Assembly: GCA_910579965.1 (NCBI GenBank)
Contig: CAJTWF010000003.1
Coordinates: 308 to 64,307, forward strand
Source of the DNA: an uncultured Oscillospiraceae bacterium
GTDB taxonomy: Bacteria > Bacillota > Clostridia > Oscillospirales > Oscillospiraceae
DNA length: 64,000 nt
Direction: 5' to 3'
The position numbers were made by a program, and so were the translations under genes. Each line of letters begins with the position of its first letter. The stretch's first letter is position 1. A model generated the notes under the pieces. That model was given only the letters and a program-made list of their open reading frames with translations, ran no database searches and was not told the DNA's origin. Below are positions 11,649-49,001 of this stretch, one piece after another.

Positions 11649-13340
11649 TCACCGCACCCTCACCAGCCGCCGGTTCTCCAGCCTGTACACCCGCTCGCAG
11701 GCCTCGGCCAGGCTCATGTGGTGGGTCACCATCAGCAGGGTCTTCTGTCCCCGCATCTGCCGGACAGCGTCAATGACCGCCCGCTCGGTGTCCACGTCCA
11801 GGGCGGCGGTGGCCTCGTCCATGATGAGGATCTCGGACTCCTTGTACAGCGCCCGGGCCAGGGCGATCCGCTGGCGCTGTCCCCCGGAGATGGCCGTGCC
11901 GTTCTGCCCGATGATGGTGTCCAGGCCCTCCGGCATCTCCCGCACGTCCTCCCAGATCTGGGCGCACTCCAGGCACCGGATGATCCGCTCCTCGTCCTCC
12001 TCCGCCGCCATGAAGGCCACGTTGCCCCGGACGGTCTCATCGTTGAGGAAGACGGTCTGGGGGATGTAGCTGACCACCGCCCCCACGTCCCCCCGGCAGG
12101 GCCCCTGGCCGTCCCGGCCCTCCACCAGATCAAAGTCGTCGTACCAGATGTGTCCCCCCTGGGGCCGGAGCAGGCCCAGGAGCAGATCCAGCAGGGTGGT
12201 CTTTCCCCCGCCGGAGGGCCCGATCACCGCAGTGGAGCGCCCCGCCGGGATGTGGATGGAGGCGTTTTCAAAGATCTGCTTCCCGTTGGGGTAGCGGAAG
12301 CACAGGCCCTCCACCCGGATGCCGCTCTCCAGCGTGACGGGCTTCTCCCGCAGGGGGATCCTGTCCGCCTGGGCCCGGCGCAGGGCGCCGTACCGGAGCA
12401 GGGACCCGCGGAGGGCCTCGAAATACCTGGAGGCGAACCGGAGGCCGGTCAGCGCCTCCACAATCCGTTTGGACACCGGGAGCATCCGGGTCAGCAGGGT
12501 AATGAAGATCAGGGCCTGGGGGAGAATGCTGCCCAGCTCCAGCCCGGCGGCCAGCAGGGCCGCCAGCAGCACAAACAGGGCCGACTGCATCACGTCCCGC
12601 AGCACCACCCCCTGGAGGCCCCGGGTGAAGTCGTAGTCCTTCTGGATCCGGGCGCACTCCCCGCTGGCCCGGCGGTACTTCTCCAGCAGGTTCCCCCGCC
12701 GGGCGTCGATTTTGATCTCCTTGTAGGACCCGAACATGGTGGACACCATCCCGCTGGCCCGGATCTCCAGCCGCCGCCGCTTCTCCCCGTACCGGACGGC
12801 GTAGATCCGGCCCCGGCAGTAGAGGCCCGCCATCAGAGCCGCCAGCAGGACGCAGCTGGCCGCGCCCACGCCCCGGGCCGCATAGATCATGGCCAGCGCG
12901 TAGGCCGCCGTGGTCAGCCCGTCCACCGCCAGCCCCAGGCAGGCGGGGATCATCCCGGCGCAGACGGCGGGGTCATTCCGGGCGCCGCTGACCGCCTCCA
13001 TGGCGGTTCTCCGGTTGTGGTCCTCCAGCTCCTCCATGCCGTAGAGCTCGTAGAGCTTCACAGACCAGCTGTGGGCAACGTCCGTCACCAGGGCGGTGGC
13101 GGCCCGGCCCCGCAGCAGCTCAAAGGCCCCCACCGCCAGCAGCGCCAGAGCCACAAGGGCCATCCGCGCCGCCAGCGGGCCGGAGGAGCCCTGGTCAAAG
13201 GCCTGCTGGAGGAGGGGGATCATCATGGACACGCCGGCCAGATCCGCCGCCGGGGCCATGAGGCACAGGGGTACAAACCGGGCCAGGGCCGCCCGCTCCG
13301 GCGGATCCAGGAGCCGGAGAAGCTCTCTAAACGTTCCCAT
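11649..13340 (-). CDS. ABC exporter, fused permease/ATPase (MsbA-like half transporter)
   Basis: Six-TM N-terminal half. Walker A GPSGGGKTT, signature SGGQRQR, Walker B ILIMDEAT. ATG 13340 preferred (10 nt after GGAGG) over the track start GTG 13349. Confidence 0.88.
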   Translation of the reverse strand: MGTFRELLRLLDPPERAALARFVPLCLMAPAADLAGVSMMIPLLQQAFDQGSSGPLAARMALVALALLAVGAFELLRGRAATALVTDVAHSWSVKLYELYGMEELEDHNRRTAMEAVSGARNDPAVCAGMIPACLGLAVDGLTTAAYALAMIYAARGVGAASCVLLAALMAGLYCRGRIYAVRYGEKRRRLEIRASGMVSTMFGSYKEIKIDARRGNLLEKYRRASGECARIQKDYDFTRGLQGVVLRDVMQSALFVLLAALLAAGLELGSILPQALIFITLLTRMLPVSKRIVEALTGLRFASRYFEALRGSLLRYGALRRAQADRIPLREKPVTLESGIRVEGLCFRYPNGKQIFENASIHIPAGRSTAVIGPSGGGKTTLLDLLLGLLRPQGGHIWYDDFDLVEGRDGQGPCRGDVGAVVSYIPQTVFLNDETVRGNVAFMAAEEDEERIIRCLECAQIWEDVREMPEGLDTIIGQNGTAISGGQRQRIALARALYKESEILIMDEATAALDVDTERAVIDAVRQMRGQKTLLMVTHHMSLAEACERVYRLENRRLVRVR

Positions 13341-13373
13341 GGACAACACGCCTCCTCAGCAGAATAGGTGCGG

Positions 13374-16639: not shown

Positions 16640-17980
16640 TCAAGAGGGAAAGGGGGCGTACCGGTCAAAGAGGCTGTCCGGCACGGTGTAGGACCAGAAC
16701 TGCCGGGGGGTGCGGGTCAGCAGCTGGGTGCCGCTGTCGCAGGCCTCCCGGATGTATCCGCCCGCCACATGCCGGTCCTCCCAGGCGGTGCGCATGTCGC
16801 ACCCGATGTCGCACATGAGGCTGCCCTCCGCCCCCTCCTCCTTGATCCACACCCGGGCCGTGCCGCACACATACTCCACCCGCTTTCCCCCCAGGCTCCT
16901 GTTGTCCAGGCTCCAGCAGTGGAGGGCCCAGGCCTCCTTCTCCCCGGAGCCGGCGCGGCGGAACAGGTCCTCCCGCCGCAGGGTGATCTCCACCCGGCTG
17001 CCGCAGTCCTTCCACGCCTCCGCCGGCAGCTCCTGGCTGGTTCCGTCCCAGTTCAGATCAAAGATGCCGCCTCCCACGCCCTCGCCGGAGGCCCGCCGCC
17101 AGATTTTGCTGCCCTTGAGGGTATAGCTGGCCGACAGCTTTGAGATGCAGACCGTGACGGCGTCCGGGAAGTCCTCCTCCGCCACCGCCGGCTGCACCGT
17201 CAGCCACACGTTGAGCTTATCCCGGTCCTTGTCAAAGGCGAACTCCATCCGGGGGGAGATGTTCCCGGAGAAATCCCCGCTCTCCGTCCAGCCCCGGACC
17301 TCCTGGAGGCAGGTGACCCAGTGCATGCTCCGCCAGAGGGCGCTGTGGAACCGGGTCTCGTCGATCCACCCGTAGTTCTGATAGACCAGGGGCTGGGACC
17401 CGCCGGCGGCCAGGTAGTAGAGGGAGCCCCCCAGCCACTCCTTGAGCCAGATCCGCCCCGGACCCCTGATATCCTGGATCCTGGCCGCCGTCAGCTGGCT
17501 CACCTGGTAGTCCCCCTCCGGCAGGTACAGCCGTCCGTCCCCGGCGTCGATGGCCGCCGCAAAGGCGGCGGTGTCGTCCGAGGCCGGCGACGAGGCCGCC
17601 GGGTCCGCCGCCGTGTAGGCCATCACCCGGTCCCCCACGGCCGGGGTGTAGTCCCTCTGCCCGGGCCGCACGTCCGAGAGGCAGATCTGGCGGCCCCGGG
17701 GGGTCTGGCCGTCGGGGATCACCTCATAGGCCCCGGCGTTTTCCCCCTCCCCGGCGCAGGGGACGTGGCGGGTGGCTGTAACCAGACTGGCGTAGTGGCC
17801 CACCCAGTAGTTCCACGTGTCCCGCAGCTCCCCCAGGTGGTGGTGATACGCGGCGTCCCCCGCCGCGCTGTAGTCCCGCACGTTGACCCAGCCGCTCTCC
17901 GCCGTCTCCGGCCGGGCCGCCGCCGAGGCCTCCCCGCAGGCCCACAGCAGGAGCAGCAGGGCCAGCATCCATCGCTTCAT
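16640..17980 (-). CDS. secreted protein/lipoprotein of unknown function, pectate-lyase-3-like N-terminal motifs
   Basis: Signal peptide MKRWMLALLLLLWACGE (lipobox-like LWAC). VNVRDYSAAGD and DDTAAFAAAIDAGDGRLYLPEGDY resemble the N-terminal signature of beta-helix polysaccharide hydrolases/lyases. Confidence 0.65.
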   Translation of the reverse strand: MKRWMLALLLLLWACGEASAAARPETAESGWVNVRDYSAAGDAAYHHHLGELRDTWNYWVGHYASLVTATRHVPCAGEGENAGAYEVIPDGQTPRGRQICLSDVRPGQRDYTPAVGDRVMAYTAADPAASSPASDDTAAFAAAIDAGDGRLYLPEGDYQVSQLTAARIQDIRGPGRIWLKEWLGGSLYYLAAGGSQPLVYQNYGWIDETRFHSALWRSMHWVTCLQEVRGWTESGDFSGNISPRMEFAFDKDRDKLNVWLTVQPAVAEEDFPDAVTVCISKLSASYTLKGSKIWRRASGEGVGGGIFDLNWDGTSQELPAEAWKDCGSRVEITLRREDLFRRAGSGEKEAWALHCWSLDNRSLGGKRVEYVCGTARVWIKEEGAEGSLMCDIGCDMRTAWEDRHVAGGYIREACDSGTQLLTRTPRQFWSYTVPDSLFDRYAPFPS

Positions 17981-17984
17981 CTTG

Positions 17985-19535
17985 TCACACCTTTCCGGCT
18001 CTGGGCCGCGTTCTTCTCACAAAGCTCCCCACGTAGGCCAGCAGGTCCCTGCACTCCGGGGTCCAGCCGAACAGGACCAGCAGCATCCCCCCGTAGAGGA
18101 CCGCGCAGGTCAGGCCCTTGGCGGCCAGGTTCCAGAATCCCGGCCCGCCGGCCAGACGGCAGACCCGCTCCGTCCCCCACCCCGCCAGCAGCATCCCCCC
18201 TGTCCACAGCAGATACCGGAGGAAATATCCCGCCAGCCGCTGCCCCCGCCTTTCCCGCCACCCGTAGCGGAAGAGGACCAGCGGGTCCACCCAGAAGGGG
18301 ATCAGCAGCAGGTCCAGCACCGTGGCGGCCAGAATGCCGTCCAGCCCGAACCGCCGGGCCAGGATCAGGGACAAAACAAGGTTCACCGCCACCTCCGCCA
18401 GGGCCTTGTACCTGTCGTACCAGAACAGGCCCATGGCGCCCCGGAACTTCTGAATGACCGTGCGCATACCGGTGATGTAGAACTGGGCCAGCAGAAGCAG
18501 CACCGTCCGCCGGGGCAGCAGATAGTCCCCGCCAAAGCACAGCAGGATAAAGGGCTCGAACAGCACCAGCATAGCCACGGCGCAGGCGGAGTAGAGCAGG
18601 AAGGCGCTGAAGCTGAGCATGGAGAAAACGCGGTGCCGCCTGTCCTCGTCCCCCTCCGTGGCCACCAGATTGCCGATGCTGGCAGAGACTGCGTCGTACA
18701 GCCGGTCCACCACACCGCCCACGTTGGTGCAGATGAGCTTGTAGTTGGAGTAGATCCCCGCGGTCCCCAGGCTCACCAGGGCGGAGATGAGGATGCTGTC
18801 CACGCTGTAGACCATCATCCCCGCCGCCTTGTGGATGAAGAGAGCCCTCACGTTCCGGAAGATCTCCCGGGCCGTCTCCCTGTCCGGATAGCTGCGGCGG
18901 TCCTCCCGGAGGTAGGGGTACATCCGCTCCGCCCGCCGGGAGGCCAGGATGTTGGGCAGCAGGCCGCACAGGATCTGAACCAGCAGGTAGAGGAAGAAAT
19001 TCCGGGTGAGCAGCAGCACCGCGATCTGTCCCCCGTAGCGGACCAGGGTGAAGAAATTGGCGTACATGCTGCAAATGTACTGGTTCTGGTGGGCCTCGAT
19101 GAGGGCCGCCTTGTAGACGAACAGATAGGAGGTCACCGACTGGCTCAGATACAGCAGATAGATGAGCACCATGTGGTCAATGGGCCTGTCCGTGCGCACC
19201 AGCAGATCCAGAAACGGCAGCAGGGCCAGCCCCAGGACCGCCACCGCCACGGCCACCCATCGGTAGAGCAGCCGGTAGAGATTCATGAGCCGCCGGATCT
19301 CCTCCCGGTTCTCCCGGGCCACGGGGCTGTAGAGGGCGTACATCATGGCCGCCCCGATGCCCAGGTCCGCCAGGGACAGGATGGACAGCACGTTGCTGAA
19401 CAGCCCGTTGATTCCCAGGTACTCGCTGGGCATGTACCGGGCCAGAATGGACCGCCCCGCCACGGCCAGGATCAGGTTGAGCAGCTGGCCGAAAAAGCCC
19501 GCCGCCATGTTTATCATGGATTTTTTGGTCCTCAT
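17985..19535 (-). CDS. wzx: oligosaccharide flippase (Wzx, MOP superfamily)
   Basis: Start ATG 19535 (MRTKKSMINMAAGFFGQLLN), ATGA overlap with the upstream stop. About 12-14 TM helices, typical polysaccharide-biosynthesis-protein pattern. Confidence 0.85.
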   Translation of the reverse strand: MRTKKSMINMAAGFFGQLLNLILAVAGRSILARYMPSEYLGINGLFSNVLSILSLADLGIGAAMMYALYSPVARENREEIRRLMNLYRLLYRWVAVAVAVLGLALLPFLDLLVRTDRPIDHMVLIYLLYLSQSVTSYLFVYKAALIEAHQNQYICSMYANFFTLVRYGGQIAVLLLTRNFFLYLLVQILCGLLPNILASRRAERMYPYLREDRRSYPDRETAREIFRNVRALFIHKAAGMMVYSVDSILISALVSLGTAGIYSNYKLICTNVGGVVDRLYDAVSASIGNLVATEGDEDRRHRVFSMLSFSAFLLYSACAVAMLVLFEPFILLCFGGDYLLPRRTVLLLLAQFYITGMRTVIQKFRGAMGLFWYDRYKALAEVAVNLVLSLILARRFGLDGILAATVLDLLLIPFWVDPLVLFRYGWRERRGQRLAGYFLRYLLWTGGMLLAGWGTERVCRLAGGPGFWNLAAKGLTCAVLYGGMLLVLFGWTPECRDLLAYVGSFVRRTRPRAGKV

Positions 19536-20563
19536 GTCCGGCGGGTCCTCAACCGTACCCACAGCCGGAGATACCACGCCGCCGGGTAGAGGAAGCTCGC
19601 CGCGTCCACCGCCCGCTTCGTCAAGTCCTCCCGCCGGACCAGCCGCCGCCACCGCAGGGGGTAGGGGTAGAGTCCCCGGTCCCGGAGCTCCTCCAGCGTC
19701 CGCTCCAGCAGCGCCCGGTCCCCCTTGGCCAGCAGGCGGTTGAGAATCCCCTGCACCTCGTCGATCAGCCGCGTCTCCAGCTCCGCCTCCGTCACGGGGA
19801 CCCGCAGGCGGGGCGCTCTCCCGGCCCGGAACGCCCGCAGGCGGCCCAGATGGCTCTCCGCCAGCCCCAGCCGGCCCTGGATGTAGCCGGGAAAGCGGCT
19901 GTCGTCCATGAAGGTGGCCACGATGCTGTCCGCCCGGCGGCGGTAGCCGTACAGCTTCTGGTCCAAATAGCCGCACCGGCCGGCGCAGCGGTCCAGCCAG
20001 AAGTTGAACTCCGCGTCCTCGAACAGGGCCCCTACCGGGAACCGCAGGCCGTACTCCTCCAGCACCGCCCGGCGGATCAGGTAGTTCCAGGCCGTCCTCC
20101 AGGCCGGCACGGCCGGATCCCGCCGCATCTCCAGGGGGTCCCTGTAGCGCCGCAGACGCCCCGGGTCCACCCCGGCGGACAGGGGCGGCGCCGCTCCGTC
20201 CTCAAACCGGGCGTAGTCAAACAGCAGCTGGTCCAGCCCCTCCTCCGCCGCCAGACGGCACAGGGGCCCCAGCACCCCCCGGGCCAGCACATCGTCCGCG
20301 TCCATAAAGTATACATACTCCCCCGACGCGGCCCGGAGGCCCGCGTTCCTGGCCGCGCTCAGGCCGCCGTTGGGCTGGCATATGACCGCCACCTGGGGCC
20401 GGCGGCGGGCGTAGTCCCGGGCGATCTCCCCGGTCCGGTCCGTGCTGCCGTCGTCCACGCAGATGATCTCATAGTCCCCCATGTCCTGGTCCAGCAGGGC
20501 CTCCAGGCAGGCCGGGAGATACGCCTCCACCTGACAGGCGGGCACAATCACAGAAAGCTTCAT
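19532..20563 (-). CDS. family-2 glycosyltransferase
   Basis: Start ATG 20563 (MKLSVIVPACQVEAYL), ATGA overlap. DDGSTDRT and DADD motifs. Confidence 0.85.
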   Translation of the reverse strand: MKLSVIVPACQVEAYLPACLEALLDQDMGDYEIICVDDGSTDRTGEIARDYARRRPQVAVICQPNGGLSAARNAGLRAASGEYVYFMDADDVLARGVLGPLCRLAAEEGLDQLLFDYARFEDGAAPPLSAGVDPGRLRRYRDPLEMRRDPAVPAWRTAWNYLIRRAVLEEYGLRFPVGALFEDAEFNFWLDRCAGRCGYLDQKLYGYRRRADSIVATFMDDSRFPGYIQGRLGLAESHLGRLRAFRAGRAPRLRVPVTEAELETRLIDEVQGILNRLLAKGDRALLERTLEELRDRGLYPYPLRWRRLVRREDLTKRAVDAASFLYPAAWYLRLWVRLRTRRT

Positions 20564-23816: not shown

Positions 23817-24862
23817 TCCGCCTCCCTCCCCCAGTCCGGGAACGCCTGGGCCAGGGCGTTGGCCATCAGCCGGTCCGGCCGGAGATGGGCCAGATAGTAC
23901 GCCCGGTTGGCCTGGGCCATCCGGTAGGTCCGCTCCGGGTCCTCCATCAGCGCCTCCACCTGCGCCAGACAGCCCTCCACATCCGTGAAGGGCAGGTAGT
24001 TGACCCCCTCCCGGAAGTCCCCGGGCACCTCAAACCGAAATCTCTCGTTCACCACCGCCTTGGCCGCGGCCACGTACTCCGCCGTCTTCCAGCCGATGGA
24101 GTCGTGGAGCCCCGCGGACCCCACGCAGATGTGGACGCGGCGCAGGGCCTGGAGGTAGCGCGTCCGTTTGGTCTCCCCCACGCCCACCATGAGCGCCCCC
24201 CACTGACGGACCGCCCGGGGGTCAAACTGGAGGCCCCCCATGAACCGGGGCCCGTACCGGGCCTTCAGCGCCGACACCAGCCGGACCCGGCTGCGGTTGA
24301 GCGCCTCCACGCTCTCCCGGAGCTCATCCCCCGCCGGCACGTGCCACAGCCGGGTGTAGAACAGCACCGTGGGCCGGCCGGAGAAGACCGGCCGGCACTC
24401 GAACCTGTCCGGCGTGAAGCTGCTGCGGGGCGCGCCGTTGAACACCCGCTGGAACAGGTCCCTGCCCCGCTCCCGCCAGGAGGTGATTCTGTCAATGGGG
24501 CTGCCGGGCCAGGACACGTGGTAGTGGAGCCCCAGGGGCCGCAGCCGGTCCCGCAGCTCCGGCGGGAGCTTGGCCGTCTCCTCCCGGGAGAGGCTGCGGC
24601 GGAACACCAGATCCGCCTCCGCCGCCAGACGGGGCAGGGCCTGCTCCACCTCCGAGCCGTAGCCGTCCGCCAGATCGAACAGCAGATGCTTTCCCCCGCC
24701 GTCCACCCCCAGCAGGGGGGCGTAGGGGAACCGCCGCCGGTTGCTCCGGTCCAGCTCAAAGGACAGCCGGACCCGGCCCTGCTCCTCCAGCATCAGCAGT
24801 CCCGTCACCGGCATGCTCAGATGGGCGGTCCGGTTGGTGCAGTATACGTTCAGCGCAAGCAT
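23813..24862 (-). CDS. GT-B-fold glycosyltransferase-like protein (CgeB / Glyco_trans_1_2-like C-terminus)
   Basis: Start ATG 24862 with GGAGGAGGAGGGGAA upstream. C-terminal ...GSAGLHDSIGWKTAEYVAAAKAVVNERF...NYLPFTDVEG... resembles CgeB-type glycosyltransferase domains. Confidence 0.6.
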   Translation of the reverse strand: MLALNVYCTNRTAHLSMPVTGLLMLEEQGRVRLSFELDRSNRRRFPYAPLLGVDGGGKHLLFDLADGYGSEVEQALPRLAAEADLVFRRSLSREETAKLPPELRDRLRPLGLHYHVSWPGSPIDRITSWRERGRDLFQRVFNGAPRSSFTPDRFECRPVFSGRPTVLFYTRLWHVPAGDELRESVEALNRSRVRLVSALKARYGPRFMGGLQFDPRAVRQWGALMVGVGETKRTRYLQALRRVHICVGSAGLHDSIGWKTAEYVAAAKAVVNERFRFEVPGDFREGVNYLPFTDVEGCLAQVEALMEDPERTYRMAQANRAYYLAHLRPDRLMANALAQAFPDWGREAE

Positions 24863-26106
24863 TTCCCCTCCTCCTCCAGTCCGCCGGCCATCAGGCAGAT
24901 GGCCAGCGCGCCGGTCACATAGATGTAGTAAAGGGTGTTGTCCGTGGCCGCCGTGGCCAGCACGTAGGTCTGGAGGCCCAGGCAGATCATGGCGGCCCGC
25001 CGCCCCTGCCGCCTGTACACGCACCAGACCCGCAGGGGGAAAAAGCTCAGCATCCACAGCCAGAATCCCCAGAACCCCGCGTCGATGTAGATCATCAGGA
25101 TATCGTTGTGCAGGGCCCGGATGGTCCAGTCGGCGGGCAGGTCCGAAAACAGCCGGGTCACAAAGCCCGCGCCGTGGCCGAAGAAGCTGGGCCCGATCCA
25201 GTAGTACCTGTCAATGAAATTGCTCAGCTCCCGCCGCCCCATGGTGTCCAGCCCCAGCCGCTCAGAGAGGAATTCAAAGATCCCCTCCTTCACCAGGCAT
25301 ACGTATACAAAGGACAGCGCCGCCGGCCCGAAGGCCGCCGCCAGCAGCCAGAAGGGGCCGCCTCGCCGCCCCGTCAGCAGCCGCAGGGCCAGCCACACCA
25401 GCACGCCTGCCGCCATGGCGGCCACGCCGATGCGCTTGAACCCGGAGAAGAAGCAGAACAGGGTTGGGGCCAGCAGCAGCCGGGCGAGCCGCTCCCCCCT
25501 GCACCGCCGCCAGTCCAGGGCGTAGTAGACCAGATAGACCCCCAGGGCGAAGGTGAGCTCGTGGATCTCCATCTGCGCCATCACCGGCCCCGTCTCCCCG
25601 GAGAAGGTGACGATCAGCCGGCGCAGCTCGTGGAGGTACACGGACAGGCCGCTCTCCCGGACCACCCGGATCACCGTGATGAAGTTGGCCCCCAGCATGG
25701 CCGCCAGATTGAGCCACAGACCCCGGCGGCCGAAGACATAGAGAACGCCCGCCATGGCCGCGAGAATAGCGAGGCCGTAGACCTGGTCAAAGAGGCCCCG
25801 GCGGATCTGGGTCAGGCGCTGCACCTGGAACACCCACAGAGGCACCGAGGCCAGCACCAGGGCCAGATGGGGCAGGCCCAGCAGGACGCCGTACCGGACA
25901 AGACGCCCGGCCCGGTTCAGGTCCGTGCGCACCAGAAACACCAGAAAGCTCACCGCCGCCAGCACCGCCGCCAGCACGAACTTGTACATGAAGTGGACGC
26001 CCAGATCAATATACTCCGTATGAAAGTAGTACATCCCGCAGGCCAGCAGGAGGTAGGCCCCCGCCAGGAGGCCGTCCCACAGGCGGCGGGTCCCGCCGCC
26101 TGTCAT
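24850..26106 (-). CDS. wzy: O-antigen/repeat-unit polymerase (Wzy, O-antigen ligase-like family)
   Basis: 418-aa protein with about 10-12 TM helices and a conserved loop ...RALHNDILMIYIDAGFWGF.... ATGA overlap with the upstream gene. Confidence 0.78.
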   Translation of the reverse strand: MTGGGTRRLWDGLLAGAYLLLACGMYYFHTEYIDLGVHFMYKFVLAAVLAAVSFLVFLVRTDLNRAGRLVRYGVLLGLPHLALVLASVPLWVFQVQRLTQIRRGLFDQVYGLAILAAMAGVLYVFGRRGLWLNLAAMLGANFITVIRVVRESGLSVYLHELRRLIVTFSGETGPVMAQMEIHELTFALGVYLVYYALDWRRCRGERLARLLLAPTLFCFFSGFKRIGVAAMAAGVLVWLALRLLTGRRGGPFWLLAAAFGPAALSFVYVCLVKEGIFEFLSERLGLDTMGRRELSNFIDRYYWIGPSFFGHGAGFVTRLFSDLPADWTIRALHNDILMIYIDAGFWGFWLWMLSFFPLRVWCVYRRQGRRAAMICLGLQTYVLATAATDNTLYYIYVTGALAICLMAGGLEEEGKCLR

Positions 26107-27935
26107 GCCTCCTCCGCCCCCTTCAGGCCCGCCGGGCCGGTCTGGTAGGGTCTGCGGCCCTTGATCGCGCCGGTAATCAGGCCCCGGATGTAGAACACCG
26201 CCGACTCCCCCGCGTTGACCGCCCCCATCTGGTAGGGCACGGATACGGCGTCCACGGTCTGCCGCAGGGTCACCTCCAGCCGCTCCACCTCCTGGGCCAG
26301 GGAATCCTGGGCCAACCCGTCAAAGAACACCCAGAACTGCCCGCCGCCGTTGTAGCCCACAAAGCCGTTTTTCCGGCTCTCGAACAGCTCCCGCAGCACC
26401 CGGCCGAAGGTCTGGAGCACCCGGTTCGTCTCCTCCCGGCCCAGGGTCTCGTTGAGCTCCTGCTGGTTGACGATCTGGAGGTTGATGCAGCTGGTCCCCA
26501 GGGGCAGGATCAGGTTCTCCCTGTCCTGAATGTACTTGTCGCAGGACACCCGGTTCATGCAGCCGGTGGCGCTGTCCCGCAGGAATATGTACTCCAGGAT
26601 GTCCCCCAGCCGCCCCAGCACAATGGCCCCGCAGCACCCTGCGGCCAGGAAGAAGGCCGCGATTACGGCCATGTAGGCGGACATGTTGATCCCCTCCGCC
26701 ACGCTGGCCGAGGAGAGGGTACGGATGTTCCGGGCCCCCAGGTAGTCGTTGTACTCCGAGTTGGTGTCCGCCACCGCGTCGTAGAGGGCGTTCATCTTGC
26801 CGATCACGCCGGCGATCTCCTCCTCCACCTCCGCCGCCGTCGCGCCCCCGGCCGGGCCGCCGCCCTCGTACACGCCGATGATGTAGGCGCAGTAGGCCGC
26901 GTCGATCTCCGCGTAATCCCACCGGTCCGCCGCGCTGGCCCAGTTGCGCAGCAGCGCGTCGTACTGGATGACCCGGCTGGTGGAGGTCCACTCCCCGTCG
27001 GTCTCCCGCTCCCGCTCGTAGACGTCGCCGAGAATATAGTTGGCGTCAATATCCGTGTTGCCGGACTGGCGCATCTTCTCCACGTAGGTCTCAATGATGC
27101 GCTGGATGTCCCCGATGTCCTCCTGGGCGCTCCGGCCGTCCAGGCCGTAGCCGGCAATCCGGTTCTGGTACTTGTCCAGCAGCACCGTCCGGTCCTTGGT
27201 GACCCGGCTGCCCAGGATGAGGGCGTAGAGCCGGGGCACGTCCACATCCAGCACCAGCTTGAACTGGTCCCGCAGATCCGAGAAGGAGTAGCCCGTGTCC
27301 GCGGACCGGAACCCCTGCTCCCGCTGGTAGCGGTTGTGGAGGGTGTTGACGGTCTCGGTGAGCTGCGCGTCGATCTGCTCCACCATCTCCAGGTAGTCGT
27401 AGTCCGTTTGGATCAGATCCCGGGTCTGGTTGCTCACCTGCTCCTGGTTGATATGCTTGTTGCTGTAGTCGGAGAAGTACACGTCCAGCAGCTCGCTGAG
27501 GATGTCCCGGGCAAAGCCCGCGCTGCCGGAGGCGTCCAGCTTGCAGCTGACGATGTAGGCCGTGGGCTGCTCCGTGTACTCCTTGCCCTCCTCGTTGAGG
27601 GCCTGCTGGACGTTCTGGGCCTGCTCCTCAATGATCGGCTCCACCCGGATGCTGGCGCACAGGGTGTCCAGGCTGTAGCTGGCCGGGGACAGGCCCAGGT
27701 TCTCCATCACCTTGGCCATGTTGCCAGCGGAGGCGATCTCCGACACGTCGATGGCGGACCCGTCCGGGGCCCGGCCCTCCTTGGCGTCCCCGTTGGCGTA
27801 CTCGATCACCGCCGAGGCCGTGTAGGTCTGCTTCTTTGCCAGCACCCTGGAGGCAAGAAGGGTCATGCCGATGAAAAAGCAGACGATCAGCGGCAGCCAC
27901 CGCTTGAGGTAGCGAAATATCTGAAACTGCTTCAT
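26103..27935 (-). CDS. Wzz-like polysaccharide co-polymerase fused to a C-terminal degenerate GGDEF domain (GGGQF)
   Basis: Start ATG 27935 (MKQFQIFRYLKRWLPLIVCFF) after GAGGAGGTGAGCGGG. TM1, a large external region, TM2 (MSAYMAVIAAFFLAAGCCGAIVLG), then DSATGCMNR ... NLQIVNQQELNETLGREETNRVL ... GYNGGGQFWVFF. Confidence 0.75.
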   Translation of the reverse strand: MKQFQIFRYLKRWLPLIVCFFIGMTLLASRVLAKKQTYTASAVIEYANGDAKEGRAPDGSAIDVSEIASAGNMAKVMENLGLSPASYSLDTLCASIRVEPIIEEQAQNVQQALNEEGKEYTEQPTAYIVSCKLDASGSAGFARDILSELLDVYFSDYSNKHINQEQVSNQTRDLIQTDYDYLEMVEQIDAQLTETVNTLHNRYQREQGFRSADTGYSFSDLRDQFKLVLDVDVPRLYALILGSRVTKDRTVLLDKYQNRIAGYGLDGRSAQEDIGDIQRIIETYVEKMRQSGNTDIDANYILGDVYERERETDGEWTSTSRVIQYDALLRNWASAADRWDYAEIDAAYCAYIIGVYEGGGPAGGATAAEVEEEIAGVIGKMNALYDAVADTNSEYNDYLGARNIRTLSSASVAEGINMSAYMAVIAAFFLAAGCCGAIVLGRLGDILEYIFLRDSATGCMNRVSCDKYIQDRENLILPLGTSCINLQIVNQQELNETLGREETNRVLQTFGRVLRELFESRKNGFVGYNGGGQFWVFFDGLAQDSLAQEVERLEVTLRQTVDAVSVPYQMGAVNAGESAVFYIRGLITGAIKGRRPYQTGPAGLKGAEEA

Positions 27936-27940
27936 CCCGC

Positions 27941-29305
27941 TCACCTCCTCTTTCGTCCCCCCGCCAGGGAGAACCAGCACAGCCGCAGCCCGGCGGCGAA
28001 AAGGACCGTTCTCGCGGCGATCTCCGCCGCCAGCTTCATGGCCTGGGCCTCCGAGGAGGAGACCACGGCGGTCATGTACCGGTTGGCCTGCCGGGCGTTA
28101 TACTCCTTCACCAGCTCCTCCGCCAGACCGGCGATGCGGGTGAGCTCCCGCCGGATCTGGCCGATGAGCGCCTCCGCCTTGTCCTCCGCCCCGCCGGACC
28201 GGCCGGAAAGCTGGCCGATCACGTGGTCATTGTAGGCGATTTTCTCCTGGATGGCGATCTTTTCATCCGCGTAGTGGTTGGCGTTGGCGGCGAAGTCGTC
28301 CACGCCGATGCGGGTCTGGGACATGTAGAACTGGTTGTTGGTGTCATAGGTGGGCACCAGAACAATGCGGGCCATGTCGTCCTCGTACATGGTGATGGCC
28401 TCCAGCATGTTCTCGTTGGACGCCGCCGCCTTCTGGGCGTTGAAGCGCATGAACACGTTGGCCACCTCCAGCCGGTTGACGTACTGCCCCGGGTCCCGGG
28501 AGATCCCCTCCTCCAGCACATAGGCCTCCAGACGCTCCACCAGGGTCTCCTCCACCTCGTAGGCCAGGGCGGACACCGACTGGAAGGTCTCCCCGCTGGC
28601 GCTGGAGCGGAAGGCTGGCTCCTCGCCGGACATGCTGCGCATGTACTCGCCGATGGACTGGGCCGTCTGGGCCAGGAACAGGCAGCTGTCCAGGTAGTCC
28701 GCCCCCTCCGCCGGGGAGAAGTCCAGGCGGAGGATGCTGGGGTTCGCCGAGTAGCTCCTGACAAACCAGTCCTTGTAGGCCTGGGTCACCAGGGTCAGCA
28801 GCTTCTCCCCGTCCTGGGAGGCGGTCTCGCTGCTGGCGTTATACTGCACCACAAACTGGGTGGAGATGAAGTAGGCGTCCTCGGAATAGCTGTTCCCCTG
28901 GACCACCGGCCGGACCTGTATGGTGTTCTTCAGGTCCTGGGCCGTGATCCCCTCCAGCGCCCCCTTCTCAATGGCCCCCTCCAGGACCTGGGCGCTGAGG
29001 ATGTCCGCCTGGTTGAACCGGGTGCCGTTGGGGTTGAGGCCCTGGGAGGCCAGACTGTAGTGGAGGGTGATCTCCGCGCTGGTGTGGAGGCGCAGAGCGG
29101 CGGGGAGCAGGAAGCAGTTGAGCAGAAATACGGCCAGCACCAGCGGCCCCAGGCTCCAGCTCCGCCGCACCGCCCGGTACTCCGCCAGCAGCGTCCGCAG
29201 TCCCTGCCGGGACCGGTTGCGCAGCACAAGCAGACCGCAGGCCGCCAGCAGCAGCGACACTCCGGTCAGCGCGATTGGGTAATAGTTGATGACTTGAAAC
29301 AGCAT
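27941..29305 (-). CDS. second PCP/Wzz-like membrane protein (two N-terminal TM helices, one C-terminal)
   Basis: 454-aa ORF. Hydrophobic N-terminus, large hydrophilic central region with coiled-coil-like segments, and a C-terminal TM (AARTVLFAAGLRLCWFSLAGG). Confidence 0.55.
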   Translation of the reverse strand: MLFQVINYYPIALTGVSLLLAACGLLVLRNRSRQGLRTLLAEYRAVRRSWSLGPLVLAVFLLNCFLLPAALRLHTSAEITLHYSLASQGLNPNGTRFNQADILSAQVLEGAIEKGALEGITAQDLKNTIQVRPVVQGNSYSEDAYFISTQFVVQYNASSETASQDGEKLLTLVTQAYKDWFVRSYSANPSILRLDFSPAEGADYLDSCLFLAQTAQSIGEYMRSMSGEEPAFRSSASGETFQSVSALAYEVEETLVERLEAYVLEEGISRDPGQYVNRLEVANVFMRFNAQKAAASNENMLEAITMYEDDMARIVLVPTYDTNNQFYMSQTRIGVDDFAANANHYADEKIAIQEKIAYNDHVIGQLSGRSGGAEDKAEALIGQIRRELTRIAGLAEELVKEYNARQANRYMTAVVSSSEAQAMKLAAEIAARTVLFAAGLRLCWFSLAGGRKRR

Positions 29306-29329: not shown

Positions 29330-30226
29330 TTAGTTGATATCCAGAATCACCAGCTCAGGCTGGTTGAATACACGGGGCGCCAGGCCGTGGCTCCCCAGGC
29401 CCCGGCTGATGAGCAGGGACATGCCCTCCCTCTCGTACCAGCCCCCGTCGTAGACGGGGAACAGCCCCTCCGCGCCGGAGAAGAGCCCGCCCACTCCGGG
29501 GATGCGGATAACGCCGCCGTGGTTGTGGCCGGACACCGTCAGGTCAATGGCGGCGTCCGGAATATACTCCATCACCGGCTCCGGCCGGTGGGAGATGAGA
29601 ATTTTGAACGTCTCCGGGTCCTCCTCCGCGAAGCGGGTGACAAACTGCCCGGAGTGGGGCCAGAAGCTGCTGGCGTTGGTGCTCAGGCCGCCGATCCTGA
29701 TCGCGGCGCCCTTCACCTCCGCCGTCACGGCCTCGTTTTGCAGCAGGACGGCCCCGGTCCCCTCCAGGTCCTCCCAGACCTGCGGGTCCAGGAGCAGGGG
29801 GGAGAAGTCCTCCGGGTCCTCCCCCAGGGCGGCTCCGTCCAGAAACTTCTTGTTCAGATCCTGGCCGTAGAGCGCCTCGTTCTCGTGGTTTCCCATGGCG
29901 TAGTACACCGGCGCGATCTCCGCCAGCTCCCGGCACAGGCCCACGGCGTAGTCCCAGTCCGGGTCCCCCTTGTTCACCAGATCCCCCGCGATCAGCAGCA
30001 GATCCGGCCGCAGGGCCCTCACCCGGTCCAGCAGGGTCTCGTTGTCCGGACCAAAGGAGCGCTGGTGCAGGTCCGCCAGCACGATCACCCGCACGGTCTC
30101 CTCGATCTTATAGGACTCCATGGCATAAAAGGTCTCCTCAAAGGAGCTGTTGGACCATATGATCCACGCCGCGATCACGCCTATGGTTATCCCGGCGCTG
30201 ATGATTCCTGTCAATATCCGCTTCAC
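29330..30226 (-). CDS. membrane-anchored metallophosphoesterase
   Basis: GTG start (GTGA overlap). N-terminal TM ILTGIISAGITIGVIAAWIIW. Motifs LADLH, AGDLV, GNHE, SGHNHGG. Confidence 0.85.
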   Translation of the reverse strand: MKRILTGIISAGITIGVIAAWIIWSNSSFEETFYAMESYKIEETVRVIVLADLHQRSFGPDNETLLDRVRALRPDLLLIAGDLVNKGDPDWDYAVGLCRELAEIAPVYYAMGNHENEALYGQDLNKKFLDGAALGEDPEDFSPLLLDPQVWEDLEGTGAVLLQNEAVTAEVKGAAIRIGGLSTNASSFWPHSGQFVTRFAEEDPETFKILISHRPEPVMEYIPDAAIDLTVSGHNHGGVIRIPGVGGLFSGAEGLFPVYDGGWYEREGMSLLISRGLGSHGLAPRVFNQPELVILDIN

Positions 30227-33470: not shown

Positions 33471-34139
33471 TCAGCAGCCCTCGCCCCGCAGCATCACAAA
33501 GGGCGTTTTCAGCATCAGCTTGACGTCCCCCCACAGGGAGGCGTTCAGTATGTACTCCATGTCGTCCTCCACCCACTCGGCGAAGGACACCGCGTTCCGG
33601 TCCGTGCGGACCTGCCAGAGACAGGTGAGGCCCGGCTTCACGATCAGCCGCAGGCTCTGGTAATCCGTATACTCCGCGGCCTCGCAGGGCAGGGGCGGCC
33701 GGGGGCCGATGATGCTCATGTCGCCCCGCAGCACGTTGAAGAGCTGGGGCAGCTCGTCGAGGCTGCTCCTGCGCAGAAATTTCCCGATCCGTGTGACCCG
33801 TGGATCGTCCCGGATCTTAAACACCGGCCCGTCCATCTCATTAAGCGCGGCCAGCTCCGCCCGCTGCTGCTCCGCGTCCACGGCCATGGTGCGGAATTTG
33901 TACATGGTGAAGCGCCTCCCGCCCAGGCCCAGCCGGGTCTGGCGGAAGATGGGTCCTCCCCGGGGATCGTCCAGACAGATGAGGACGGCCAGCAGAAGGA
34001 GCAGCGGGGCGCTGAGCGCAAGCAGCAGCAGCGACGCCGCGAAATCAAAAACACGCTTCCTCTTCCAGTATTTTCTTCGGGACGCCTGCACGATTTGTTC
34101 TGTCCGTACCGCCGGCGGGGTACTCGCCGTCGCTCCCAC
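33471..34139 (-). CDS. initiating sugar-phosphate transferase (bacterial sugar transferase / polyprenyl-phosphate hexose-1-P transferase)
   Basis: GTG start 8 nt after AGGAGGAG. One TM, then PIFRQTRLG..G..F..YKFRTM...DELPQLFNVLRGDMSIIGPRP, diagnostic of the WbaP/EpsL-type catalytic domain. Confidence 0.9.
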   Translation of the reverse strand: MGATASTPPAVRTEQIVQASRRKYWKRKRVFDFAASLLLLALSAPLLLLLAVLICLDDPRGGPIFRQTRLGLGGRRFTMYKFRTMAVDAEQQRAELAALNEMDGPVFKIRDDPRVTRIGKFLRRSSLDELPQLFNVLRGDMSIIGPRPPLPCEAAEYTDYQSLRLIVKPGLTCLWQVRTDRNAVSFAEWVEDDMEYILNASLWGDVKLMLKTPFVMLRGEGC

Positions 34140-34379: not shown

Positions 34380-34462
34380 TGCAGGGGCGGGCATCGCTCG
34401 CCCGTTTCTTTCGGACCGCTGGAGGGCGTCGTTAGAACGGGCGAGCGATGCCCGCCCCTGCA
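34380..34462. repeat. 27-bp perfect inverted repeat with 29-nt loop (very stable hairpin; possible insulating terminator)
   Basis: TGCAGGGGCGGGCATCGCTCGCCCGTT (34380-34406) is the exact reverse complement of 34436-34462. On the minus strand a TTTTTT run follows 10 nt downstream. Confidence 0.8.
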
Positions 34463-34581: not shown

Positions 34582-34630
34582 CAAAAAGGCCGTCCGGCGG
34601 AGGATGCTTCCCCGCCGGACGGCTTTTTTC
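34582..34630 (-). terminator. bidirectional intrinsic terminator after iorB
   Basis: GCCGTCCGGCGG-N11-CCGCCGGACGGC stem, flanked by AAAAA on the left and TTTTTT on the right. Starts 18 nt past the iorB stop. Confidence 0.8.
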
Positions 34631-42363: not shown

Positions 42364-42993
42364 CTACTGGAGGGAGGCGGCGATGGTCTCATAGATGTTG
42401 TCCGCCAGGGGGAGGGCGCGGTCCAGAACCGCCCGGCCGCGGGCCAGGGCCCGGTCCGCAAACGCCCGATCCCGCAGGCTCCCCACGTTGATGAGCACGT
42501 TCAGCCACGCGCCCTGTATCCCGGCCCGGAGGGACAGCGCCGCCACCCCCAGATCGCTGGCCGCGCTCTCGTTGCACCTGCCCAGGATGGACCCCGCCAG
42601 CTCCAGGGCCTCCCCTGCCAGCTCCATCCCCTCCAGGGGAACCTCCGTGCACAGCTCCAGGCCCCGCTGGATGGCCTGGGACCGGGCCGCCTTCTCCTCC
42701 TCGGTCCCCTTGGGCAGGGCAAAGGCGGCGCTGACGGTCAGAAACGCCTCCGTATCCCGGTCCATCACCTCCAGCAGACGGGGCCTCAGCGCCTCCGCCC
42801 GCTTCTGCACGTCCGCAATCAGCGCCTGATGGGCCGCGTATTTCTCCCGGCCCGCCGTCAGGGCGCAGACCATCGCCGTGAGGGCCGCGCCGAAGGCCCC
42901 CTCCAGGGCCGCAACGGACCCGCCGCCGGGGGCCGGCGCGTCGGAGGCCAGCAGGCCGGTGAATCCGGCCACCGTCTGTTCGCTCAGCTTCAT
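42364..42993 (-). CDS. formiminotetrahydrofolate cyclodeaminase (cyclodeaminase/cyclohydrolase family)
   Basis: 209 aa. ...LASDAPAPGGGSVAALEGAFGAALTAMV..., typical of the FTCD C-terminal domain family. Confidence 0.85.
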   Translation of the reverse strand: MKLSEQTVAGFTGLLASDAPAPGGGSVAALEGAFGAALTAMVCALTAGREKYAAHQALIADVQKRAEALRPRLLEVMDRDTEAFLTVSAAFALPKGTEEEKAARSQAIQRGLELCTEVPLEGMELAGEALELAGSILGRCNESAASDLGVAALSLRAGIQGAWLNVLINVGSLRDRAFADRALARGRAVLDRALPLADNIYETIAASLQ

Positions 42994-43005
42994 GGCCTCT
43001 CCCCC

Positions 43006-43917
43006 TTACTCCAGCCCGATCAGGTGGTACTCCATCACCTGCCGGCGGCAGTCGAAGTCCTCCAGCTTCAGGTAGTACTCCGCGCAGTCCAGCAGGGCCT
43101 TGCCCGGGGTCAGACCCACCAGCTCGCTGCCGATGATCCGCACGCCGTAGCGGTCCGCCAGGGCCCGGATCATCTCAAACACATAGTAGATGGGGGTGCC
43201 CTCGTAGTTGACCAGGTTCATGGACACCTGGGCGATGTTCCGGCCCTCCAGCATCACGCCGATGGCCTTGCAGTACTTGAATCCCCCGGAGGAGCAGCGG
43301 ATGGCCTTGGCAATCCTGCTGGCAATCTCCAGATCCGAGGTGTCCAGGTTCACGTTGTAGGCGATCAGAGGCATCCGGGCGCCCACGGCCACCACGCCGG
43401 CGGTGGGGTGAATCTTCCGCTCCCCGAAGTCCGGGGCCCACTCCGGCTTCAGCAGCTTCTCCGCCATGCCCTCGAACTGGCCCCGGCGCACGTCCGCCAG
43501 ATTGGCCCGGTCCGGGGAGGACGCGGAGTCCTCGTAGAGGAACACCGGCACCCCCAGCTCCTCCCAGATCCGCCTGCCCAGCTGGCGGCTCAGCTCCACG
43601 CACTCCTCCACCGTCACGTCCATGGCGGGGACAAAGGGGATCACATCCGTGGCCCCCATGCGGGGGTGCTGGCCCGTGTGCCTGGTCATGTCGATGGTCT
43701 CCGTGGCCTTCTTGGTCAGCTGGAAGGCCGCCTCCCCGATGCCGGCTGGGGAGCCCACCATGGTGAACACGCAGCGGTTATGGCTGCCGTCGGACTGCAC
43801 GTCCAGAACCGTGCAGCCGGGAATGCTGTTGGCCGTGTCCACCAGGGCCTGATAGACCTCCGGGTCCCGCTCCCGGCTGACGCTGAAGTTGGGAATGCAC
43901 TCAATGAGCTTTGCCAT
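43006..43917 (-). CDS. ftcD: glutamate formimidoyltransferase
   Basis: Start ATG 43917 (MAKLIECIPNFSVSR) after GGAGGAGAGAGAC. ...HPRMGATDVIPFVP... motif. Overlaps the hutI 3' end by 17 nt. Confidence 0.9.
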   Translation of the reverse strand: MAKLIECIPNFSVSRERDPEVYQALVDTANSIPGCTVLDVQSDGSHNRCVFTMVGSPAGIGEAAFQLTKKATETIDMTRHTGQHPRMGATDVIPFVPAMDVTVEECVELSRQLGRRIWEELGVPVFLYEDSASSPDRANLADVRRGQFEGMAEKLLKPEWAPDFGERKIHPTAGVVAVGARMPLIAYNVNLDTSDLEIASRIAKAIRCSSGGFKYCKAIGVMLEGRNIAQVSMNLVNYEGTPIYYVFEMIRALADRYGVRIIGSELVGLTPGKALLDCAEYYLKLEDFDCRRQVMEYHLIGLE

Positions 43918-45178
43918 GTCTCTCTCCTCCCGGGCCCACAAGGCCCTGCTCGTTTCTGTAAATTTTTCCGCCCTTGACCACCGCTCCGGCCAGATTGCTG
44001 CCCAGGCGGTAGCAGACATACTCCAGATCCGGCGCGTTCCACACCACCAGATCCCCCGCCTTCCCCGGCTCCACGGAGCCGGTCCGGTCCGCCCGGCCGA
44101 TGGCCGCGGCCCCGTTGAGGGTGGCGGCGGTGAGCACCTCCTCCGGGGTCATGCGGTACTTCAGGCACCCCAGGCTCATGGCCAGCTGCATGTTCAGGCA
44201 GGGACAGGAGCCGGGGTTGAAGTCCGTGGCCAGGGCCACGGGCACGCCGGCGGCAATCATATCCCGGGCCGGCGCGAAGGCCGCGCCCAGGTAGAAGCTG
44301 GTACACGGCAGCAGACAGGCCACCGTGCCCCCCCGGGCCATGGCCTCAATGCCCTCGGGCGGGCAGACGATCAGATGCTCCGCGGACACGGCCCCCAGCT
44401 CCCCCGCCAGCCGGGACCCGCCGATGGCGTCGATCTCGTCGGCGTGGATCTTGGCCGCCAGGCCGCAGCGCCGCCCCGCCTCCAGGATCGTCCGGGACTC
44501 CTCCGCCGTAAACACCCCGGTCTCGCAGAACACGTCGCAGAACTCCGCCAGTCCCTCCGCCGCCGCGGGGATCATCTCCTCGCACAGCAGCCGGATATAG
44601 GCCGTCCGGTCCGCCTTGTAGTCCTCCGGCAGGGCGTGGGCCCCCAGGAAGGTGGGGACCAGATCCACAGGATGGCTCTCGTTCAGGGCCCGGATGGCCC
44701 GCAGCTGCTTAAGCTCCGTGTCCAGGTCCAGGCCGTATCCGCTCTTGGCCTCGCATGTGGTGGTGCCGAAGGAGAGCATCTCGTCCAGGGCCAGCCGGGC
44801 CTTGTCCTCCAGCTCCCCCTGTCCGGCGGACCGGGTGGCCCGGACGGTGGACAGAATGCCGCCCCCCTGGGCCAGGATGTCCAGGTAGGGCACCCCCCGC
44901 AGCTTCATGGCCAGCTCGTTCTGCCGCCAGCCCCCGAAGATCAGGTGGGTGTGGGCGTCCACCAGACCCGGCGTGACCAGACGGCCCTCCGCGTCCAGCT
45001 CCTCCGCCCCGGCGGGGCGCTCCGGCGTCCCCGTGCCCACGGCGGCAATCACGCCGTCCTCCATGCGCACCCAGGCGTTTCGGAGGAACCTCACGTCCCC
45101 CTGGTCCGCGCCCCGGCGGGCGGTCCTGCCCGCCGGGGTGGCCAGAAGGCCGATATTTTTGATGAGTAAGGTGTCCAT
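43901..45178 (-). CDS. hutI: imidazolonepropionase
   Basis: 425 aa. GLVDAHTHLIFGG, ...KIHADE..., ...SAEHL... and DFNPGS motifs of HutI amidohydrolases. Confidence 0.93.
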   Translation of the reverse strand: MDTLLIKNIGLLATPAGRTARRGADQGDVRFLRNAWVRMEDGVIAAVGTGTPERPAGAEELDAEGRLVTPGLVDAHTHLIFGGWRQNELAMKLRGVPYLDILAQGGGILSTVRATRSAGQGELEDKARLALDEMLSFGTTTCEAKSGYGLDLDTELKQLRAIRALNESHPVDLVPTFLGAHALPEDYKADRTAYIRLLCEEMIPAAAEGLAEFCDVFCETGVFTAEESRTILEAGRRCGLAAKIHADEIDAIGGSRLAGELGAVSAEHLIVCPPEGIEAMARGGTVACLLPCTSFYLGAAFAPARDMIAAGVPVALATDFNPGSCPCLNMQLAMSLGCLKYRMTPEEVLTAATLNGAAAIGRADRTGSVEPGKAGDLVVWNAPDLEYVCYRLGSNLAGAVVKGGKIYRNEQGLVGPGGERHGKAH

Positions 45179-45187
45179 ACCGCCGCC

Positions 45188-47203: not shown

Positions 47204-47230
47204 AGGAAAGACCTCCTTGTTTTTTGTAAA

Positions 47231-47357
47231 CATACTTTTTCTTGAAAGAAAAAGTATCAAAAAGAACTTCAAAAGGATATTTGGGGGCTGCCGGCAGTCC
47301 AAACAAGCACATCTAAAATTTTCTTTTGATTCTTTTCTTTTATAAAAGAAAAGAATG
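47231..47357. repeat. nested-palindrome intergenic repeat, copy A (between hutH and hutU)
   Basis: A/T hairpin TACTTTTTCTT-GA-AAGAAAAAGTA (47233-47256), then core ...GGGCTGCCGGCAG..., then A/T hairpin TTCTTTTCTTTTA/TAAAAGAAAAGAA (47330-47355). Same architecture and recognisably similar sequence to 54417-54597. Confidence 0.75.
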
Positions 47358-47366
47358 ATTACTTAT

Positions 47367-48932: not shown

Positions 48933-48972
48933 AGATGTTCCTCCTCTGTTTGCTGCAAGATCACTGTGCCCT

Positions 48973-49001
48973 ATTGTACTACATTCTTTTTCTGTTTTCA
49001 A
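48973..49001 (-). promoter_or_regulatory. candidate hut operon promoter
   Basis: Minus strand: TTGAAA, 17 nt, TACAAT, about 40 nt upstream of the hutH start. An 8-nt inverted repeat GTAATTCG-N11-CGAATTAC lies just upstream (49046-49072). Confidence 0.5.

Follow-up and report, generated by a model that had tools for sequence, protein, structure and literature searches.

Post-translational control of polysaccharide assembly by the Wzx/Wzy pathway is understood mainly through tyrosine-kinase co-polymerases, and the control of polymer assembly by cyclic di-GMP (c-di-GMP) that is known to us concerns synthase-type systems (cellulose, alginate, Pel, Pss and Yda). We describe here a protein, B, whose family would join these two themes. 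Its gene lies at 26103..27935 on the minus strand of a 64,000-nucleotide stretch of contig CAJTWF010000003.1 (assembly GCA_910579965.1, an uncultured Oscillospiraceae bacterium); we refer to the whole of this stretch as the window. B is one subunit of a polymerisation module that is conserved in Clostridia and lies here inside a Wzx/Wzy-type exopolysaccharide (EPS) locus. B and its partner A are distantly related paralogues, and both have the topology and the fold class of polysaccharide co-polymerases (PCPs). The family may represent a new way to switch polysaccharide production.

The best structural match to the N-terminal model of B is Wzc, the PCP-2a of Escherichia coli K30 (PDB 7NHR, 9EXO, 9R62/9R64; E 8.6e-6, probability 1.0). 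Like Wzc, B has two transmembrane (TM) helices around a large helical outer domain, carries a cytoplasmic nucleotide-fold regulatory domain fused past TM2 and is encoded together with Wzy and Wzx genes. The differences are considerable: the regulatory domain of B is a degenerate GGDEF domain in place of a Walker-type tyrosine kinase, there is no C-terminal tyrosine cluster (the tail, KGRRPYQTGPAGLKGAEEA, has a single tyrosine), no Wza partner accompanies it, the host is Gram-positive, and B has a dedicated paralogous partner in A. Sequence similarity to Wzc is undetectable and the TM-scores are low. The CpsC/CpsD and CapA/CapB systems, in which a PCP-2b works with a separate bacterial tyrosine kinase (BY-kinase), share with B a Gram-positive Wzy-dependent locus that has PCP and phosphoesterase genes at its core. 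In contrast to these systems, no BY-kinase, PHP phosphatase or LCP gene is found anywhere in the window, nor does the window, EPS locus included, contain any kinase-type P-loop gene, and the phosphoesterase of the module is calcineurin-like and probably extracytoplasmic. The outer domain of B, at about 380 residues, is far above PCP-2b size. A first-pass annotation of this DNA had proposed that nucleotide signalling may take the place of tyrosine phosphorylation, and the absence of a BY-kinase from the window agrees with that proposal.

Catalytically dead GGDEF domains are known from PelD, PssE, YdaK and BcsE, which resemble B in being membrane-associated, in lying within an EPS operon and in being thought to act post-translationally. 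These proteins serve synthase-type pathways rather than Wzx/Wzy, and we know of none that is fused to a PCP-like domain; unlike B, they have an RxxD I-site. The closest functional precedent for B is Alg44, which has a membrane-fusion-protein fold, not that of a PCP, and belongs to a synthase-dependent pathway of Gram-negative bacteria. Alg44 is an alginate co-polymerase subunit with its own cytoplasmic c-di-GMP-pathway domain, PilZ (PMC8461298), where B has GGDEF. A degenerate GGDEF domain beside an EAL domain also serves as a relay or allosteric domain in LapD, FimX and PdeA. GGDEF and EAL belong to a single chain in LapD and FimX, whose input is periplasmic or HAMP-type, whereas in the B family they are alternative C-termini that never co-occur and that sit on a PCP-like protein. 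The architecture had been flagged at first pass as uncharacterised, and full-text searches of the literature found no description of a PCP or Wzz protein fused to GGDEF or EAL. Papers on Pseudomonas stutzeri EPS273 and on Fibrobacter were considered as precedents for such a fusion and set aside, as they describe separate proteins.

The A/B module and its co-polymerase fold

B is 610 residues long, the gene coordinates including the stop codon. It starts at the ATG at 27933-27935 and stops at 26103-26105; a GTG 45 nt further upstream is a possible alternative start, but the 610-residue form is also the choice of independent gene calls on other contigs. The topology is that of a PCP, with a large outer domain between two TM helices and both termini in the cytoplasm. 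The basic N-terminus leads into TM1 (residues 14-34, 27834..27896, minus strand as for all segments of B), which is followed by a Wzz-like β strand (residues 38-46); these assignments come from AlphaFold2 (AF2) secondary structure, hydropathy and a weak PF02706 match over residues 7-52, and the peptide KKQTYTASAVIEYAN spans residues 34-48. The extracytoplasmic PCP-like domain (residues 35-417, 26685..27833) consists of an α/β base and long helices between residues 139 and 403, and was assigned with Foldseek on a model of residues 1-447. TM2 (residues 418-441, 26613..26684, MSAYMAVIAAFFLAAGCCGAIVLG) has a hydropathy of 2.5 and is predicted by AF2 to be part of one continuous helix, residues 418-452. 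This helix takes in most of the juxtamembrane linker (residues 442-455, 26571..26612, RLGDILEYIFLRDS), which is defined by its conservation, and the GGDEF fold begins only after TM2: the degenerate GGDEF domain occupies residues 456-598 (26142..26570). The full-length AF2 model, built on 47 sequences with a predicted local distance difference test score (pLDDT) of 82.5, places these elements in the order TM1, strand, α/β base, helices, TM2 and GGDEF fold (residues 462-598 in the model). AF2, hydropathy and Pfam thus uphold the layout given by the first-pass annotation (TM1, large outer domain, TM2, cytoplasmic degenerate GGDEF domain), and every peptide that it quoted lies where it was placed, including GGGQF at nt 26334-26348.

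The genes on either side of B form a module with it. A (27941..29305, minus strand) is a 454-residue membrane paralogue of the outer domain of B, identified by BLASTP and by hidden Markov model (HMM), that ends just past its last TM helix. The two proteins share 22% identity over 448 residues in BLASTP (E 1e-4), and the HMM of the N-terminal domain recognises A with an E-value of 4e-16. NCBI names A a ‘hypothetical protein’; it is probably a second co-polymerase subunit. Upstream of A is a membrane-anchored metallophosphoesterase, probably extracytoplasmic (29330..30226, minus strand; Pfam Metallophos E 4.5e-16, with weak similarity to YaeI and LpxG), of the calcineurin-like family. The start of the Wzy-like polymerase gene (24850..26106, minus strand) overlaps the stop of B. 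Its Pfam Wzy_C match is weak (E 1e-3), but homologues at the same position pass the threshold.

The order and strand of these four genes are conserved. A scan with one genome per GTDB species showed that at least 164 species encode a relative of B, and 80 loci from different species of Clostridia were fetched for gene context. A is directly upstream of B in 69 of 71 loci, the metallophosphoesterase is upstream of A in 66 of 67, and the Wzy-like gene is downstream of B in all 72, adjacent to it in 69. The named carriers are all Clostridia; they include Oscillospiraceae, Acutalibacteraceae, Lachnospiraceae, Anaerovoracaceae and Faecalibacterium, together with Lacrimispora, Hungatella, Eisenbergiella, Acetatifactor and Provencibacterium. 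The family is widespread in gut Oscillospiraceae, Lachnospiraceae and Acutalibacteraceae. The window itself has a 99% match in a metagenome-assembled genome of an uncultured Clostridia/Oscillospiraceae bacterium. Two natural fusions provide further evidence. P0207 is an A-B tandem in one chain, and P0188 (three sequences on four contigs) joins B-GGDEF, a TM helix and Metallophos in one chain; we take these fusions to mean that the parts of the module are linked functionally. A basic stretch ahead of the TM helix of P0188 would place its phosphoesterase outside the cell. This suggests that the metallophosphoesterase of the module faces outward, where it might cleave a pyrophosphate-linked lipid intermediate. 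The first-pass annotation had called for such a survey across genomes; its interpretation of B is supported in part, but it overlooked both the partner gene A directly upstream and the conserved four-gene module.

The co-polymerase assignment of the outer domain comes from fold comparison. Neither Pfam, NCBIfam nor a family profile run against all PDB sequences gave a significant Wzz or Wzc match for B. The Pfam Wzz profile (PF02706) reaches 10.7 bits on B (E 0.67), well below its cut-off of 25.5, and the best of the more distant relatives score 22-24 bits; Wzz is matched at E<=0.01 in 4 of the 47 aligned relatives. The co-polymerase part being below threshold, the family has stayed hidden from domain databases. 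As GGDEF matches swamped the Foldseek search with the full-length model, residues 1-447 were modelled alone (pLDDT 80). Wzc, WzzE and WzzB account for all of the 13 top PDB matches of this model (E 8.6e-6 to 3e-2, probability 0.84-1.0): the Wzc entries reach E-values of 8.6e-6 to 2e-4, all with probability 1.0, full-length WzzE 8.4e-4 and WzzB 1.9e-2. The model also has the α/β base and the long antiparallel helices of solved PCPs, and the gene context is that of a PCP, with the Wzy-like gene overlapping the stop of B and a Wzx-like gene in the locus. The sub-threshold Wzz score counts against a co-polymerase, as do the TM-scores of the PCP matches, which are low (0.15-0.36) and mean that the match is at the level of fold class and not a close superposition. 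PCPs usually carry a proline-rich motif just before TM2; this motif is absent from B, whose corresponding segment, EYNDYLGARNIRTLSSASVAEGIN, contains no proline. In the end, we consider the outer domain, as modelled, to be PCP-like and nearer in size to Wzc than to PCP-2b. The description ‘Wzz-like’ given at first pass therefore holds at the level of fold but not of sequence, and the placement with PCP-2b has to be revised, since the closest fold matches are the large Wzc-type PCPs and not the small PCP-2b proteins of Firmicutes.

The degenerate GGDEF domain and its natural variants

The identity of the cytoplasmic domain is clear. The Pfam GGDEF profile (PF00990) scores 26 bits on the whole of B and 29 bits on the C-terminus alone, above the cut-off of 23.8, with the match covering residues 453-560, and it matches 45 of the 47 aligned relatives, with a best E-value of 1.8e-13. 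The family profile run against PDB sequences retrieved GGDEF domains only (6eib, E 2.8e-8). In the Foldseek search of the PDB with the full-length model, ranks 1-39 are all GGDEF domains, with target-normalised TM-scores of 0.6-0.67 for the domain, and Wzc follows at ranks 40-41. The profile and structure checks proposed with the first-pass annotation thus both find GGDEF, and its motif-by-motif reading (DSATGCMNR at residues 454-462, CINLQIVNQQELNETLGREETNRVLQ at 483-508 and GYNGGGQFWVFF at 527-538) is correct when B is aligned with 8c05 and 6eib.

The same HMM alignments show which motifs have been lost. Q487 aligns with the first metal-binding Asp. The signature hairpin, Y-N-G-G-G-Q-F (residues 528-534, 26334..26354), takes the place of R-x-G-G-[DE]-E-F; its GGGQF aligns with GGEEF, so that the two Glu residues become G532 and Q533. 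These alignments establish the catalytic degeneracy recognised at first pass. The absence of an RxxD I-site was also correctly called: R521-K-N-G524 (26364..26375) falls on the I-site, which is RGSD in 8c05. N495 and N504 of B align with the guanine-contacting Asn and Asp. On these motifs, the domain should be unable to act as a cyclase, and B is not expected to synthesise c-di-GMP.

N461, R462, D466, N495, G499, R500, F525 and N529 are invariant in the 47 sequences, and within the hairpin G530, G532 and Q533 are at least 90% conserved; in the closer subfamily, conservation within the domain peaks at this hairpin. Over the whole protein, conservation is highest in the linker, G-R-x-G-D-I-L-E-Y, with a mean pairwise identity of 67% compared with 44-52% for the other domains, and its G441, R442, D445 and I446 are invariant in the same alignment. 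Since the mean pairwise identity of the degenerate GGDEF domain (44%) is close to that of the outer helices (47%), and in view of the linker and the invariant residues, we conclude that the domain is under selection despite the loss of these motifs.

The wider family was surveyed by an exhaustive profile search, which gave 264 clusters at 50% identity (E<=1e-30); 85 domain-bearing representatives are among the 150 listed. Neither GG[DE]EF nor RxxD occurs in any of the 85. The guanine-recognition pair (positions N495 and D504) is ND in 45 representatives and NN in 15. In the closer subfamily the signature reads YNG[GS]GQF, which relaxes to Y-N-G-x-x-x-F in the wider family.

The domain itself is replaceable. 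P0249 and P0260 have an EAL domain (E ~3e-59) in place of GGDEF. P0260, listed as ‘EAL domain-containing protein [Acetivibrio sp. MSJd-27]’ (WP_216424180.1) and derived from an isolate, retains EAL, N, DDFGT, KxD, EGxE and QG, nearly all of the catalytic and binding motifs; P0249 is more degenerate. Several dozen bare B proteins of ~450-480 residues, such as P0209, are among the matches listed. B with the degenerate GGDEF domain, B with EAL (loci L006 and L088) and bare B all occur in the same Wzy/A/B/Metallophos context. As orthologous B proteins carry EAL instead of GGDEF, or no domain at all, we regard the cytoplasmic domain as an optional add-on. Both types of cytoplasmic domain found on B belong to the c-di-GMP pathway, and the EAL-bearing orthologues would thus lend independent support to a c-di-GMP link. 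These natural variants (GGDEF-like, EAL and bare forms, and the A-B and B-phosphoesterase fusions) are ready-made experiments on capsule and EPS switching in abundant but little-studied commensals. We note that two of the bare B-type proteins, P0216 and P0221, end in extended acidic stretches with many Tyr, Asp and Glu residues, such as DDEHFDYSIYADDDDDFEYDEEF, which are reminiscent of phospho-acceptor tails.

A nearby true cyclase was considered as a conserved partner of the module and rejected as too rare: GGDEF/GGDEY proteins are encoded ~3.5 kb upstream in 2 of the 80 loci. These two loci, from Acutalibacteraceae/Ructibacterium (L052, 2-2101; L056, 3-1145), encode a protein of several domains whose GGDEF or GGDEY motif looks intact; such a protein was not seen in the other 78.

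Models for the control of polymerisation

We consider it reasonably likely, though far from assured, that A and B constitute a heteromeric co-polymerase under the control of the pseudo-cyclase domain. A and B would work together with the adjacent Wzy, and the GGDEF-like domain would be an optional cytoplasmic control module, sited where Wzc has its tyrosine-kinase domain. In B, a 14-residue helix of very high conservation connects TM2 to the GGDEF-fold domain. The state of that domain (its packing, ligand or partner occupancy) could be transmitted to the outer domain by way of the rigid juxtamembrane helix and TM2, and would there switch polymerisation or set chain length. The likeliest input would be the c-di-GMP network, because orthologous B proteins have an EAL domain at the same position; this is the weakest step of the model. 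A guanine nucleotide could bind non-canonically in the active-site pocket, which is remodelled but mostly retains the Asn and Asp of base recognition; alternatively, the input could come through docking of a genuine cyclase or phosphodiesterase on the GGDEF-like domain. In neither case would the route be the I-site. More tentatively, a heteromeric A/B ring may have its activity toward Wzy gated directly by a guanine nucleotide, c-di-GMP or GTP, and so be a Gram-positive counterpart of Wzc. It is equally tentative that the nucleotide would act by non-canonical binding to the pseudo-cyclase domain, or to EAL in sister lineages. If this were true, the sensing of a second messenger or of energy state would replace tyrosine autophosphorylation as the Wzx/Wzy switch in many gut Clostridia.

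Several observations tell against nucleotide-based control. The canonical nucleotide determinants are lost in B (Q487 at the metal-binding Asp, G532 and Q533 at the Glu residues of GGEEF, RKNG at RxxD), and the B protein of the window has N, not D, at position 504, which makes it of the NN type. Only 15 of the 85 representatives retain R552, the secondary I-site Arg. As the hairpin of the wider family is conserved only as Y-N-G-x-x-x-F, a single conserved ligand pocket is disfavoured. The bare B proteins imply that the machine works without a cytoplasmic domain. The window contains neither a c-di-GMP riboswitch nor a cyclase; upstream of the EPS locus no Rfam family, c-di-GMP riboswitches included, was found at the gathering score, and matches at E<=1 were at chance level. 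Finally, GGDEF and EAL domains both dimerise, and each might therefore be a dimerisation module only.

This last point leads to the strongest alternative, which we consider possible but doubtful: a ligand-free pseudo-enzyme scaffold that, like the structural GGDEF domain of LapD, dimerises or forms a ring under the A/B complex or recruits cytoplasmic glycosyltransferases. It would account for the loss of all the canonical nucleotide-binding motifs, for the variation of the hairpin across the wider family and for the existence of bare B proteins, and it fits the general knowledge that EAL and GGDEF are natural dimerisers. The second-best NCBIfam match of B, a weak one (E 2.8e-6), falls on the GGDEF region of LapD, a c-di-GMP receptor whose GGDEF domain we take to be nucleotide-free. 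A scaffold does not, however, explain why the cytoplasmic domain, in both of the only two forms found, is one of the c-di-GMP pathway, with a near-complete EAL site in one case, why the guanine-contacting Asn and Asp are retained in most representatives, or why, in the closer subfamily, the active-site hairpin surpasses the rest of the domain in conservation. We prefer control of the A/B co-polymerase by the pseudo-cyclase domain. Were the domain ligand-free, B would still clearly exemplify the recruitment of a pseudo-enzyme to a structural role.

The first-pass annotation had drawn an analogy with PelD, PssE and YdaK. A rival reading along these lines would make B an I-site receptor of the PelD, PssE, YdaK or BcsE type, with EPS synthesis activated by the binding of c-di-GMP. 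The setting is indeed similar, a membrane-anchored degenerate GGDEF domain within an EPS operon (PMC8461298, PMC4125290, PMC5422440). These receptors, however, depend on the I-site: YdaK binds c-di-GMP through its RxxD I-site, and R202A and D205A abolish function (PMC5422440); PssE is an I-site receptor (PMC4125290); PelD binds through RxxD, with R367, D370 and R402 needed, and BcsE likewise depends on RxxD (PMC8461298). With RKNG in B, no RxxD in any of the 85 representatives and the secondary Arg unconserved, this mechanism is not transferable to B; we reject the I-site reading as very improbable. That B is an active diguanylate cyclase making c-di-GMP locally at the polymerisation site is hardly conceivable and is rejected on the motifs, for although the Pfam GGDEF match is above its cut-off and NCBI names the near-identical protein MCI9562320.1 ‘diguanylate cyclase’, B has GGGQF for GG[DE]EF and Q487 for the metal-binding Asp, an intact motif is absent from all 85 representatives, and the cyclase profile TIGR00254 reaches 24-27 bits against a cut-off of 37.4. 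The name ‘diguanylate cyclase’ is wrong for B; the databases offer ‘GGDEF domain-containing protein’ as an alternative.

The exopolysaccharide locus and the rest of the window

The Wzx/Wzy-type EPS locus runs from 34139 down to ~10660, with every gene on the minus strand. It opens with the priming phosphoglycosyl transferase (33471..34139; Pfam Bac_transf E 2.9e-64), which is followed by a GT4 glycosyltransferase, a coiled-coil protein, a second GT4, the metallophosphoesterase, A, B and the Wzy-like polymerase. Beyond these come glycosyltransferases, the Wzx-like flippase (17985..19538; Pfam Polysacc_synt E 1.2e-5, NCBIfam WZX_like E 1e-5), a pyruvyl transferase, an FrhB-like protein, an ABC protein and a GT2. 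The ABC-type protein (11649-13349, minus strand) has an ATPase domain and is encoded in addition to the flippase; in L003, a homologous locus, an ABC_membrane+ABC_tran exporter is encoded. Two routes of export may coexist in the EPS locus, or there may be a modification step.

A ~430-nt leader separates the first EPS gene from the terminator of the POR operon upstream (34583-34629). Within it, at 34380-34462, is a perfect 27-nt inverted repeat with a 29-nt loop. No Rfam family matches this repeat, a possible regulatory or attenuator hairpin.

The DNA has a GC content of 60-70%, and many long spurious open reading frames (ORFs) overlie the real genes on both strands; a third-position GC above ~0.85 marked the real frames. 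Two ORFs with high third-position GC have no family assignment. One, of 446 residues (16640-17980, minus strand), lies inside the EPS locus, is conserved in locus L001 and has no Pfam (E<=1e-3) or NCBIfam match; the other, of 574 residues (52683-54407, plus strand), has no Pfam match at E<=1e-4. Elsewhere in the window, a complete histidine-utilisation cluster occupies 42364-49001 on the minus strand and encodes histidine ammonia-lyase, urocanase, an amidohydrolase (presumably imidazolonepropionase), glutamate formiminotransferase and cyclodeaminase.

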